DNA from: Escherichia coli
GTDB lineage: Bacteria > Pseudomonadota > Gammaproteobacteria > Enterobacterales > Enterobacteriaceae
Strand: one strand, 5' to 3'
DNA: 64,000 bases
NCBI RefSeq assembly: GCF_050920415.1
Contig: NZ_CP169309.1
Under the pieces are notes generated by a model. The model ran no database searches and had not been told where the DNA came from. It was given only the letters and a program-made list of their open reading frames with translations. Below are positions 44,617 through 58,432 of this stretch, piece after piece. Both the position numbers and the translations under genes were made by a program. Within the stretch, counting starts at the first letter, position 1. Every line of letters begins with the position of its first letter.

Positions 44617-44693
<77 letters not shown>

Positions 44694-44815
44694 CTTTCCC
44701 TTAGAGTCCTTTTTCAAATATACTGTGAAGACTTCGGCCTTCGTAGTGGGATTTGAAAAAATCCTTCTGGAAAGTGCTCCAGACCGCAGTTGCGGTTATA
44801 GGGTTCAGTTATATA

Positions 44816-44840
44816 AAGCCCCGATTTATCGGGGTTTTTT
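44816..44840 (+). terminator. Rho-independent (partial) terminator between metY and rimP
   Basis: gccccgat-tt-atcggggt followed by TTTTTT. Confidence 0.8.
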
Positions 44841-44899
44841 GTTATCTGACTACAGAATAACTGGGCTTTAGGCCCTTTTTTTATGTCTTGGGGGTGGGC

Positions 44900-46891: not shown

Positions 46892-49564
46892 ATGACAGAT
46901 GTAACGATTAAAACGCTGGCCGCAGAGCGACAGACCTCCGTGGAACGCCTGGTACAGCAATTTGCTGATGCAGGTATCCGGAAGTCTGCTGACGACTCTG
47001 TGTCCGCACAAGAGAAACAGACTTTAATTGACCACCTGAATCAGAAAAATTCAGGCCCGGACAAATTAACGCTGCAACGTAAAACCCGCAGCACCCTTAA
47101 CATTCCTGGTACCGGTGGAAAAAGCAAATCGGTACAAATCGAAGTCCGCAAGAAACGCACCTTTGTGAAACGCGATCCGCAAGAGGCTGAACGCCTTGCT
47201 GCGGAAGAGCAGGCGCAGCGTGAAGCGGAAGAGCAAGCCCGTCGTGAGGCAGAAGAATCGGCCAAACGCGAGGCGCAACAAAAAGCTGAACGTGAGGCCG
47301 CAGAACAAGCTAAGCGTGAAGCCGCTGAACAAGCGAAACGTGAAGCTGCGGAAAAAGACAAAGTGAGCAATCAACAAGACGATATGACTAAAAACGCCCA
47401 GGCTGAAAAAGCCCGCCGTGAGCAGGAAGCTGCAGAGCTCAAGCGTAAAGCTGAAGAAGAAGCGCGTCGTAAACTCGAAGAAGAAGCACGTCGCGTTGCT
47501 GAAGAAGCACGTCGTATGGCGGAAGAAAACAAATGGACTGATAACGCGGAACCGACTGAAGATTCCAGCGATTATCACGTTACTACTTCTCAACATGCTC
47601 GCCAGGCAGAAGACGAAAGCGATCGTGAAGTCGAAGGCGGCCGTGGCCGTGGTCGTAACGCGAAAGCAGCGCGTCCGAAGAAAGGCAACAAACACTCTGA
47701 ATCAAAAGCTGATCGTGAAGAAGCACGCGCAGCAGTACGTGGCGGTAAAGGCGGAAAACGTAAAGGTTCTTCGCTGCAGCAAGGCTTCCAGAAGCCAGCT
47801 CAGGCCGTTAACCGTGACGTTGTGATTGGCGAAACCATCACCGTTGGTGAACTGGCGAACAAGATGGCGGTTAAAGGTTCTCAGGTCATCAAAGCGATGA
47901 TGAAACTGGGCGCAATGGCAACCATCAACCAGGTTATCGATCAGGAAACCGCACAGCTGGTTGCTGAAGAGATGGGCCACAAGGTTATCCTGCGTCGTGA
48001 AAACGAGCTGGAAGAAGCGGTAATGAGCGACCGTGACACAGGTGCTGCGGCTGAACCGCGCGCGCCGGTTGTGACCATCATGGGTCACGTTGACCACGGT
48101 AAAACCTCTTTGCTGGACTACATTCGTTCAACGAAAGTGGCCTCTGGCGAAGCGGGCGGCATTACCCAGCACATTGGTGCATACCACGTTGAAACTGAAA
48201 ACGGCATGATCACCTTCCTGGACACCCCGGGGCACGCCGCGTTTACTTCAATGCGTGCACGTGGTGCGCAGGCAACGGACATCGTAGTCCTGGTTGTTGC
48301 TGCCGACGACGGCGTAATGCCGCAGACCATCGAAGCAATTCAGCACGCGAAAGCGGCAGGCGTGCCGGTTGTGGTTGCAGTGAACAAGATCGACAAACCA
48401 GAAGCCGATCCAGATCGCGTTAAGAACGAACTCTCCCAGTACGGCATCCTGCCGGAAGAGTGGGGCGGTGAAAGCCAGTTCGTACACGTGTCTGCGAAAG
48501 CAGGTACCGGTATCGATGAACTGCTGGACGCTATCCTGTTGCAGGCAGAAGTTCTGGAACTGAAAGCGGTACGTAAAGGTATGGCGAGCGGTGCGGTTAT
48601 CGAATCCTTCCTCGATAAAGGTCGTGGTCCGGTTGCTACCGTTCTGGTACGTGAAGGTACTCTGCACAAGGGCGACATCGTTCTGTGTGGTTTCGAATAC
48701 GGTCGTGTTCGCGCAATGCGTAACGAAATGGGTCAGGAAGTGCTGGAAGCAGGTCCGTCCATTCCAGTTGAAATCCTTGGCTTGTCCGGTGTTCCGGCAG
48801 CGGGTGACGAAGTTACCGTAGTGCGTGACGAGAAGAAAGCACGTGAAGTTGCACTGTATCGTCAGGGCAAATTCCGTGAAGTTAAACTGGCACGTCAGCA
48901 GAAATCGAAACTCGAGAACATGTTCGCTAACATGACCGAAGGCGAAGTTCACGAAGTGAACATCGTTCTGAAGGCAGACGTTCAGGGTTCCGTGGAAGCG
49001 ATCTCCGACTCCTTGCTGAAACTGTCTACTGACGAAGTTAAAGTGAAGATCATCGGTTCTGGCGTAGGTGGTATCACCGAAACCGACGCTACCCTGGCTG
49101 CGGCGTCCAACGCCATCCTGGTTGGTTTCAACGTACGTGCTGATGCCTCTGCACGTAAAGTGATTGAAGCGGAAAGCCTGGATCTGCGTTACTACTCCGT
49201 CATCTATAACCTGATCGACGAAGTGAAAGCGGCGATGAGCGGTATGCTGTCTCCGGAACTGAAACAGCAGATTATCGGTCTGGCGGAAGTTCGTGATGTG
49301 TTCAAATCACCGAAATTTGGTGCCATCGCAGGTTGTATGGTTACTGAAGGTGTGGTTAAACGTCACAATCCGATCCGCGTTCTGCGCGACAACGTGGTTA
49401 TCTACGAAGGCGAGCTGGAGTCCCTGCGCCGCTTCAAAGATGACGTTAACGAAGTCCGTAACGGTATGGAATGTGGTATCGGCGTTAAGAACTACAACGA
49501 CGTCCGCACTGGCGATGTGATCGAAGTATTCGAAATCATCGAGATCCAACGTACCATCGCTTAA
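46892..49564 (+). CDS. infB: Translation initiation factor IF-2
   Basis: 890-aa ORF; Glu/Ala/Arg-rich repetitive N-terminal region and GTPase G-domain (GHVDHGKTS). Confidence 0.97.
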
Positions 49565-49581
49565 GGTTTTTAGGGTTCTAT

Positions 49582-49653
49582 GCGGGATAAGGCGTTTACG
49601 CCGCATCCGGCATGGATTGCCTGATGCGACGCTGGCGCGTCTTATCAGGCTAC
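49582..49653. repeat. Pair of REP (BIME-like) palindromic units in the infB-rbfA spacer
   Basis: gcgggataaggcgtttacgccgcatccggca and gcctgatgcgacgctggcgcgtcttatcaggc match the REP consensus. Confidence 0.7.
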
Positions 49654-49686
49654 GTGAACAGCCCTTCTAACTGAAATTAATTTTAA

Positions 49687-49711
49687 AAAGGGGCTAACAG
49701 CCCCTTTTTTG
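49687..49711 (+). terminator. Terminator-like hairpin immediately upstream of the rbfA ribosome-binding site
   Basis: aaaaaggggct-aac-agcccctttttt. Confidence 0.6.
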
Positions 49712-49726
49712 TCAGGAGAATTTATT

Positions 49727-50128
49727 ATGGCGAAAGAATTTGGTCGCCCGCAGCGCGTAGCGCAGGAAATGCAAAAAGAGATCGCTCTCATCCTGCAACG
49801 CGAAATTAAAGATCCTCGTCTGGGCATGATGACCACCGTTTCCGGTGTCGAAATGTCTCGTGACCTGGCGTATGCAAAAGTATATGTGACGTTCCTTAAC
49901 GACAAAGATGAAGACGCGGTTAAAGCGGGCATCAAAGCGTTGCAGGAAGCTTCTGGTTTCATCCGCAGCCTGCTGGGGAAAGCGATGCGCCTGCGTATCG
50001 TGCCGGAACTGACCTTCTTCTACGACAACTCTCTGGTTGAAGGGATGCGCATGTCAAACCTGGTGACCAGCGTGGTCAAACATGACGAAGAACGTCGTGT
50101 TAACCCGGACGACAGCAAGGAGGACTAA
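49727..50128 (+). CDS. rbfA: Ribosome-binding factor A
   Basis: ATG at 49727 ([23 protein letters not shown]...) gives 133 aa. Confidence 0.95.
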
Positions 50129-51504: not shown

Positions 51505-51534
51505 AGAAAAGGGGCCTGAGTGGCCCCTTTTTTC
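51505..51534 (+). terminator. Rho-independent terminator of rpsO
   Basis: aaaaggggcc-tgagt-ggcccctttttt. Confidence 0.85.
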
Positions 51535-58339: not shown

Positions 58340-58432
58340 CTTATCCGACATTTCTGCTGCCTACACAATGCCTGATGTGCTTCGCTTATCAGGCCTAGGT
58401 AGGACAGCGTTGCCAGCTCGGATAAGGCTTCC
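58340..58432. repeat. REP/BIME palindromic cluster between convergent mtr and yhbW
   Basis: gcctgatgtgcttcgcttatcaggcctaggtagg plus flanking partial REP units (gccttatccgac..., ...cggataaggc). Confidence 0.65.

Follow-up and report, generated by a model that had tools for sequence, protein, structure and literature searches.

The infB-rbfA spacer and its features

The DNA analysed in this work (the window, a stretch of 64,000 nucleotides) comes from E. coli, and a 366-nt query taken around the spacer between infB and rbfA gave 100 % identity with strain MFDS1022581 and 97 % with K-12. The gene names infB and rbfA were taken from the features lying under the 100 % match, an annotated E. coli chromosome. 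The spacer occupies positions 49565-49726 and is 162 nt long, so the length and borders given for it in an earlier note on this DNA were exact to the base. Its K-12 counterpart is NC_000913.3 3313179-3313341, on the minus strand. Read from 5' to 3', the spacer is composed of a y REP, a 6-nt linker, a z2 REP, an AT-rich stretch, the terminator-like hairpin t3 and the Shine-Dalgarno sequence of rbfA. The features referred to in the text are the following:

46892-49564, plus strand: infB coding sequence (IF2), from the list of open reading frames and the annotation of the 100 %-identical E. coli record; stop codon TAA at 49562-49564
49577-49616: y-type REP hairpin, by consensus match and fold; core on the minus strand at 49582-49611, plus strand in the "GTAG-first" orientation
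49581-49651, plus strand: the y+z2 pair as one unit, matching Rfam RF02564 (naRNA4, REP325 BIME unit)
49613-49618, plus strand: linker TGGATT, 6 nt between the REPs, of the BIME-2 "S" kind by the definition of PMC3333891
49619-49653, plus strand: z2-type REP in the inverse (iREP) orientation, by pattern match and fold, with CTAC at the outer end (49650-49653)
49660-49665, plus strand: AGCCCU, a duplicate of the 3' arm of t3, predicted to sequester the 5' arm while the RNA is nascent
49685-49710, plus strand: t3 terminator-like hairpin (A5, GGGGCU, AAC, AGCCCC, U6), by fold and conservation, with t3 named in PMC6511841
49714-49718, plus strand: Shine-Dalgarno sequence AGGAG of rbfA, 8 nt from the ATG, by sequence
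49727-50128, plus strand: rbfA coding sequence, ATG at 49727-49729, annotated as rbfA in E. coli records

The whole spacer is strongly folded, with a folding energy of −72.2 kcal/mol and a z-score of −6.06 relative to shuffled controls, and no sigma-70-like promoter was predicted inside it. Since rpsO, located further downstream, has its own promoter and leader, the downstream unit affected by events in the spacer is mainly rbfA-truB.

The window also contains metY encoding the initiator tRNA (44617-44690), which reads GAAGGTCG where K-12 has GAAGATCG. The metY of the window thus encodes the G46 (metZ-like) variant that has been reported in E. coli B strains, the K-12 form being A46.

The two REPs constitute a single BIME-2-like unit

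The core of the y REP, GCCGGATGCGGCGTAAACGCCTTATCCCGC, lies on the minus strand (49582-49611) and shows one mismatch to the y pattern GCCGGATGCGGCGNNNNCGCCTTATCCGGC, with 0.00 such matches expected from 100 shuffles. The hairpin at 49577-49616 contains internal mismatches and has a folding energy of −23.6 kcal/mol (z = −6.3); its stem starts 12 nt past the infB stop codon. The tetranucleotide GTAG located 5' of the palindrome foot is needed for binding of the REP transposase (PMC3333891). In the window it has decayed to CTAT (49578-49581); it is kept in E. coli allele B, described below, in which the canonical y REP GTAGGCCGGATAAGG is present, and in most other genera. The y REP of the window is a decayed member of its family, which retains the consensus and the palindrome and has lost the GTAG.

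The z2 REP, GCCTGATGCGACGCTGGCGCGTCTTATCAGGC, matched the z2-type pattern on the plus strand with no mismatches over 32 positions (49619-49650; 0.00 expected) and has a folding energy of −21.8 kcal/mol. It lacks one C of the consensus GGCCTAC and differs by one edit from a 36-nt z2 consensus. A plasmid copy of the z2 REP, 97.4 % identical over query positions 154-190, indicates that the element is dispersed. The 366-nt query as a whole matched a median of 12 places per E. coli genome and 72,096 places in total; the site is intergenic.

Considered as one unit, the y+z2 pair scored 75.6 bits against RF02564 (gathering score 59.5, E = 1.3e-11) and was the sole match of this kind within the 64 kb window. 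The pair is a single BIME-2-like unit according to the definition in PMC3333891, i.e. y and z2 REPs that are inverted relative to each other, with a short linker in between. Only one unit, with no tandem copies, is present here, and copy-number variation was not seen in about 107 sampled E. coli rows. Both REP-consensus palindromes that the earlier note had placed in the spacer were recovered, the y REP at 49577-49616 and the z2 REP at 49619-49653.

A second, decayed REP cluster is present elsewhere in the window, at 58340-58430, where a z1-like element GCCTGATGTGCTTCGCTTATCAGGCCTA lies between the y-like half sites GCCTTATCCGAC and CGGATAAGGC. It scores below the Rfam threshold for naRNA4.

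The terminator-like hairpin t3 and the upstream AGCCCU copy

The arms of the hairpin preceding rbfA, AAAAAGGGGCU and AGCCCCUUUUU, span 49685-49709, are 100 % complementary and are separated by a 3-nt loop. The core GGGGCU-AAC-AGCCCC occupies 49690-49704 and is followed by T6 at 49705-49710, which confirms the GC stem with a T6 run directly before the rbfA ribosome-binding site (AGGAG at 49714-49718) described previously for this DNA. The sequence has the hallmarks of an intrinsic terminator, i.e. a 6-bp stem with 5 G-C pairs, a 3-nt loop and U6 directly at the 3' side, and the U-run is carried by the hairpin and not by the REPs. The folding energy reaches −15.2 kcal/mol when the A/U extension is included and −9.5 kcal/mol for the GC core, which is short (5-6 bp). 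The gap between the end of the stem and the AGGAG of rbfA is 9 nt, or 10 nt to the GGAG core.

A consensus terminator scan did not report this hairpin and a stricter custom scan did. The consensus scan missed it because the upstream A-run pairs with the T-run, which was thereby scored as stem instead of tail, and the miss counts as no evidence against the hairpin. The hairpin is symmetric, with A5 on one side and U6 on the other, and the minus strand reads a hairpin followed by U5 (49685-49709, −15.7 kcal/mol) that could act as a stop for antisense transcripts arriving from rbfA.

The loop and 3' arm of the hairpin are part of an exact 8-nt direct repeat, AACAGCCC, present at 49657-49664 and 49696-49703. 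When the nascent RNA was folded only up to the loop, GGGGCU (49690-49695) was predicted to pair with the upstream AGCCCU (49660-49665) with P of 0.88-1.0; the terminator hairpin prevails in the folding as soon as its 3' arm is present. The AGCC of the upstream copy is invariant in 15 BIME-bearing spacers. In the folding model the AGCCCU copy is a possible kinetic competitor ("anti-terminator"), which could slow the formation of the hairpin and make t3 leaky in a manner specific to the Escherichia lineage. A conserved anti-terminator as a general feature of such spacers was rejected, since sequestration of the 5' arm at P > 0.7 was obtained in only 25 of the 86 spacers compared below and the partners were unrelated.

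The hairpin is conserved across Enterobacteriaceae and the repeats are interchangeable

For comparison, 80 loci from other genomes were collected through RbfA, and 79 of them gave a spacer (78 from other Enterobacteriaceae and one from E. coli). Together with six further E. coli strains and the window they constituted a set of 86 spacers, with seven E. coli besides the window. Spacer length in this set ranged from 62 to 289 nt. A hairpin followed by a T-run was present in 86/86 spacers, in 36 distinct versions in which the GGGG(G)C/GCCCC stem was invariant and the loop was free to vary. No covariation for the hairpin could be obtained from these 86 spacers because the stem sequence is invariant. 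The position of the hairpin relative to rbfA fell into two classes, with 9-10 nt between the end of the stem and GGAG in 60 spacers and 15-18 nt in the remaining 26, and the spacing between GGAG and ATG was 8 nt in 78 of the 86. The class with the longer gap (e.g. loci L009, L012, L027 and L050) mostly carries an insert of ~7 nt, TCTTTAT or TCTTTATT, between the U-run and the Shine-Dalgarno sequence of rbfA.

The repeats are distributed quite differently among genera. The 14 shortest spacers (62-75 nt) contain little beyond the hairpin and are devoid of REPs; REP-free spacers came from Cedecea, Buttiauxella, Shimwellia, Atlantibacter, Entomohabitans and E. pulveris, among others. Most other genera have a single y-like REP, GTAGGCCGGGTAAGCGAAGCGCCACCCGGCA, located ~10 nt upstream of the hairpin. 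The y+z pair, with either z2 or z1, was found only in Escherichia (coli, albertii), Pseudocitrobacter, some Citrobacter and Kluyvera georgiana, and an extra ERIC-like palindrome occurs in Salmonella diarizonae, Raoultella, C. youngae, C. braakii, Phytobacter and others.

The ERIC-like palindrome, CGCTCACCCCGGTCACATAGTTATCTATGCTCCCGGGGATT, was seen in spacers of 212-289 nt (loci L011, L017, L020, L022, L025, L043, L044, L052, L055 and L061). Its shorter forms, in spacers of 146-154 nt, and its longer ones, in spacers of 284-289 nt, resemble the known internally deleted and expanded ERIC variants.

Judged from this comparison of sequences, the hairpin is the old, constrained element of the spacer, and the repeats are later additions that are dispensable, interchangeable and lineage-specific. 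The retention of the hairpin with or without REPs weakens the idea that the BIME acts as the attenuator. The conservation of the hairpin together with the variability of the REPs favours a split of roles, in which the hairpin terminates transcription and the REPs at most stabilise the upstream RNA.

The same comparison bears on the proposal that ribosomes terminating on infB are stalled by a y REP located no more than 15 nt past the stop codon, with mRNA cleavage and a lower output of IF2 as the consequence. The onset of the y stem at 49577 lies inside the limit of 15 nt or less that RepRanger attributes to Liang et al. However, the distance between the stop codon and the REP is not conserved: in other genera the first REP begins from 8 to more than 130 nt past the infB stop codon, or is absent altogether, and IF2 is an abundant, essential protein. 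We regard this explanation as highly improbable.

Variation of the spacer within E. coli

The locus was found at no less than 80 % coverage in 5422 of 5426 complete E. coli genomes, and the spacer lengths deduced from about 107 sampled E. coli rows were all 158-164 nt. Comparison of the REP content between strains, suggested in the earlier note, therefore revealed no presence/absence polymorphism.

Two alleles of the spacer were distinguished. Allele A, found in K-12, O157 and the window, is represented by about 4700 genomes at least 95 % identical to the K-12 query, and allele B, with a spacer of 158 nt, by 473 genomes at least 99 % identical to it. The common allele is present in the window as a rare variant, with only 12 genomes at least 99 % identical over the 366-nt query; between this spacer and that of K-12 a few bases differ, none of them in the hairpin. 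The terminator is retained in both alleles, each with a loop of its own (GGGGCUAACAGCCCC in allele A and GGGGCUAUGGCCCC in allele B).

The most conspicuous change between the alleles concerns the foot of the y stem. Going from allele B to allele A, GTAGGCC.../...GGCAGCC is replaced on both sides by CCATGCG.../...GGCATGG (window positions 49573-49618 compared with loci L003, L004 and L005), which makes the stem longer and perfect and eliminates the GTAG. On sequence grounds the exchange looks like a compensatory change or a conversion from another copy. The z2 REP of K-12 and O157 has lost its CTAC.

In strain 22AH104 (NZ_AP043972.1; L087 2680-4000) a 1.3 kb element of the IS4 family interrupts the loop of the t3 hairpin and is oriented antisense to the operon. 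Its ends, CTGAGGGATCCCC..., are IS10-like, the target duplication is GGCTATGGCC, and a hairpin with U6 has been re-formed on the rbfA side. This insertion is one variant, hence at least one, among the E. coli matches listed. An IS10R insertion between infB and rbfA has also been described in heat-evolved K-12 strains (PMC10044804). The tolerance of IS insertions in the spacer implies that physical continuity of the operon at this point is not essential. The spacer attracts small repeats as well as IS elements.

These data are relevant to the possibility that the REPs serve no function here, as neutral or selfish passengers, so that only the hairpin matters. Such a view would account for the absence of REPs from the 14 shortest spacers and for the swapping of y-like, z1, z2 and ERIC-like families between genera, and it agrees with the loss of GTAG from the y REP of the window, the loss of CTAC from the z2 REP of K-12 and O157, and the tolerance of IS elements. 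On the other hand, the pair has been retained in the 5422 of 5426 E. coli genomes, the paired changes between alleles keep and even lengthen the y stem, a y-like REP adjoins the hairpin in most genera, and a general tendency of REPs is to favour expression of the gene upstream. Some constraint on the REPs is indicated by their near-fixation in E. coli and by the compensation within the y stem, and we consider a pure passenger role conceivable but on balance doubtful.

Published transcripts and 3'-end maps of the spacer

Terminator t3 was placed just upstream of rbfA by Brandi et al. 2019 (PMC6511841), who cite previous mapping studies. In the Northern analyses presented there, an RNA of ~4.8 kb comprising rimP-nusA-infB was negative with the rbfA probe and a read-through RNA of ~6.7 kb was positive; RNAs of ~4.3 kb and ~2.7 kb also contain infB, the former being rbfA-negative and the latter reported with the infB probe. 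The same authors quote roughly two times as much infB mRNA as rbfA mRNA (PMC6511841). Sizes calculated from the window are 4.33 kb from nusA (45380) to 49710, 2.82 kb from infB (46892) to 49710, and 6.7 kb from about 44830 to the rpsO terminator at about 51530. The calculated sizes agree with the published bands and fit a common 3' end in the spacer, although sizes estimated from Northern blots do not resolve whether the RNAs end at the U-run (49710) or have been trimmed to the z2 REP (49653).

Published genome-wide lists of 3' ends were consulted for the same region. The curated Term-seq list of Adams et al. 2021 (MG1655, three conditions, thresholded) contains no 3' end between 3311708 (rpsO leader) and 3318213 (metY), and their list of Rho-dependent regions (thresholded, one growth condition) has no entry within 3307737-3318065 on the operon strand (deaD to metY region). 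The supplements of Yan et al. 2018 have no entry for rbfA, infB or the coordinates of the spacer. The lack of a 3' end called by Term-seq indicates that t3 is probably a weak terminator, as its short GC core also suggests, or that its products are short-lived. Being thresholded, these lists point to a 3' end that is minor or short-lived and speak against a strong stop of the Rho-dependent kind; absence of termination is not shown by them.

The earlier note had read the spacer as a site of attenuation or differential mRNA stability between the nusA-infB and rbfA-truB-rpsO segments. This is supported by the published t3 and the Northern data, the downstream segment concerned being mainly rbfA-truB in view of the separate promoter of rpsO. 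The outcome of looking for 3' ends in the spacer, also proposed there, was mixed: Term-seq of Adams et al. 2021 lists none in the K-12 spacer, but RNAs of fitting sizes exist in the Northern blots. The site has already been described as t3 plus a BIME, and reading it as an attenuator is not new.

The BIME upstream of rbfA, like those of gatY and cvpA, was flagged as a candidate attenuator by Naville & Gautheret 2010 (PMC2965389), and it could be the BIME itself that attenuates, with the polymerase pausing or being released at or after the REP hairpins, possibly aided by Rho, and with the small hairpin in an accessory role. Besides the grouping of the rbfA, gatY and cvpA elements in that study, this explanation can draw on Espeli et al. 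2001, which is cited for Rho-linked attenuation at BIMEs, and on REP325 in yjdMN, which is a partly Rho-dependent terminator. Nevertheless, the hairpin is kept in 14 loci of other genera that are entirely free of REPs, different genera carry REPs of different type and number, the Rho list of Adams et al. 2021 is empty for the region and strand specified above, and the U-run belongs to the hairpin rather than to the REPs. In our opinion the BIME is unlikely, by a wide measure, to be the attenuator at this locus.

Another way of interpreting the read-through is that t3 acts as a regulated switch, at which Csp proteins or NusA alter read-through and tie rbfA-truB to temperature or to the level of NusA. 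Anti-termination by Csp proteins was proposed by Bae et al. 2000 for nusA, infB, rbfA and pnp (as cited in PMC6511841), and the operon transcripts increase when NusA-dependent termination is reduced (PMC6511841). The stems of the t2, t3 and rpsO terminators all read GGG(G)C...G(C)CCC, with a U-run of 6-7 behind them, and in the folding model the nascent 5' arm would first be held by the upstream AGCCCU. Against this, Brandi et al. 2019 saw no new read-through species on cold shock and their data did not fit anti-termination (PMC6511841), the competing helix is limited to Escherichia-type spacers, the Rfam rimP-leader model has no match at the site, and a common stem motif in so few terminators is a very small sample. 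Regulation of this kind therefore seems rather unlikely to us.

The terminators with the shared stem, which are the three leaky ones of the metY-pnp region, are located at 44863-44882 (t2, in the rimP leader), 49690-49710 (t3) and 51511-51533 (rpsO). The remaining six strict terminator-like hairpins of the 64 kb window differ from them in their stems. One might speculate that t2, t3 and the rpsO terminator form one factor-sensitive class tuned by NusA or Csp proteins, with the BIME-borne AGCCCU making the t3 of Escherichia kinetically adjustable, but the odds are well against it.

A probable leaky terminator with a later REP pair

With the anatomy of the spacer, its conservation and the published transcripts established, the explanation that we consider probable, and prefer, is a conserved leaky terminator, t3, to which a REP pair with a secondary effect was added later. 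A part of the RNA polymerases would stop at t3 and produce RNAs ending after infB, and the remaining ones would continue through rbfA-truB as far as the rpsO terminator. Such a partial stop would keep the level of rbfA-truB mRNA below that of infB mRNA.

The y+z2 pair would represent a later insertion, in the Escherichia lineage, of an ordinary dispersed repeat, the effect of which is most likely secondary. The two hairpins (−22 to −24 kcal/mol), located at or near the 3' end of the infB-terminated RNAs, would block 3'-to-5' exonucleases, as REPs do elsewhere, and the REPs may also slightly increase the attenuation. This division of work between the hairpin and the REPs is what we infer from the comparisons presented here, as is the kinetic weakening of t3 by the upstream AGCCCU.

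The locus offers a textbook-style case of an internal leaky terminator that sets the expression ratio within an operon, here of IF2 versus RbfA and TruB, and otherwise the analysis is mainly a confirmation. The additions made in this work are modest: the hairpin, and not the REPs, constitutes the conserved core across Enterobacteriaceae, two structurally compensated alleles occur in E. coli, and the spacer is prone to acquiring repeats and IS elements. The set of spacers from different genera separates the conserved functional core, the hairpin, from the interchangeable repeats, and argues against exaptation of the BIME as an attenuator. It also provides natural versions of one spacer with no REP, one REP and two REPs, which may be used to measure the contribution of REPs to a terminator.

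Comparison with known systems

The closest counterpart is t3 of Brandi et al. 2019 (PMC6511841), which is the same locus, with the same position and the same partial-stop behaviour, and no substantial difference was found. Within the same operon, the attenuator of the rimP leader (RF01770) likewise has a short GGGC...GCCC stem followed by a U-run, but it sits in a 5' leader whereas t3 lies between two genes. Assignment of t3 to the rimP-leader family was rejected: at an E-value limit of 1 only the true leader at 44782-44882 was matched, and not 49685-49710.

The REP pair resembles BIME-2 (PMC3333891; Bachellier/Gilson nomenclature) in its y and z2 composition, inverse orientation, 6-nt linker, extragenic location and dispersal. 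It differs in being a single unit and not a tandem array, in the change of the y GTAG to CTAT and in the lack of one C before the CTAC of z2.

REP325/naRNA4 of yjdM-yjdN (Harris et al. 2026 preprint) is likewise a REP pair between co-oriented genes of one operon, and it reportedly makes the mRNA of the upstream gene more stable and restricts how much of the downstream gene is transcribed; a role in nucleoid condensation, claimed for the naRNA4 family, is disputed. REP325 consists of six tandem units with no separate hairpin and U-run, whereas the infB-rbfA spacer contains one unit and a conserved terminator of the intrinsic type, with no reported Rho signal.

Finally, the rbfA locus is itself one of the BIME candidate attenuators of PMC2965389, where it is argued that the BIME was exapted as an attenuator. 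The wider sample of spacers compared in this work shows instead that the hairpin predates the REPs and does not depend on them.
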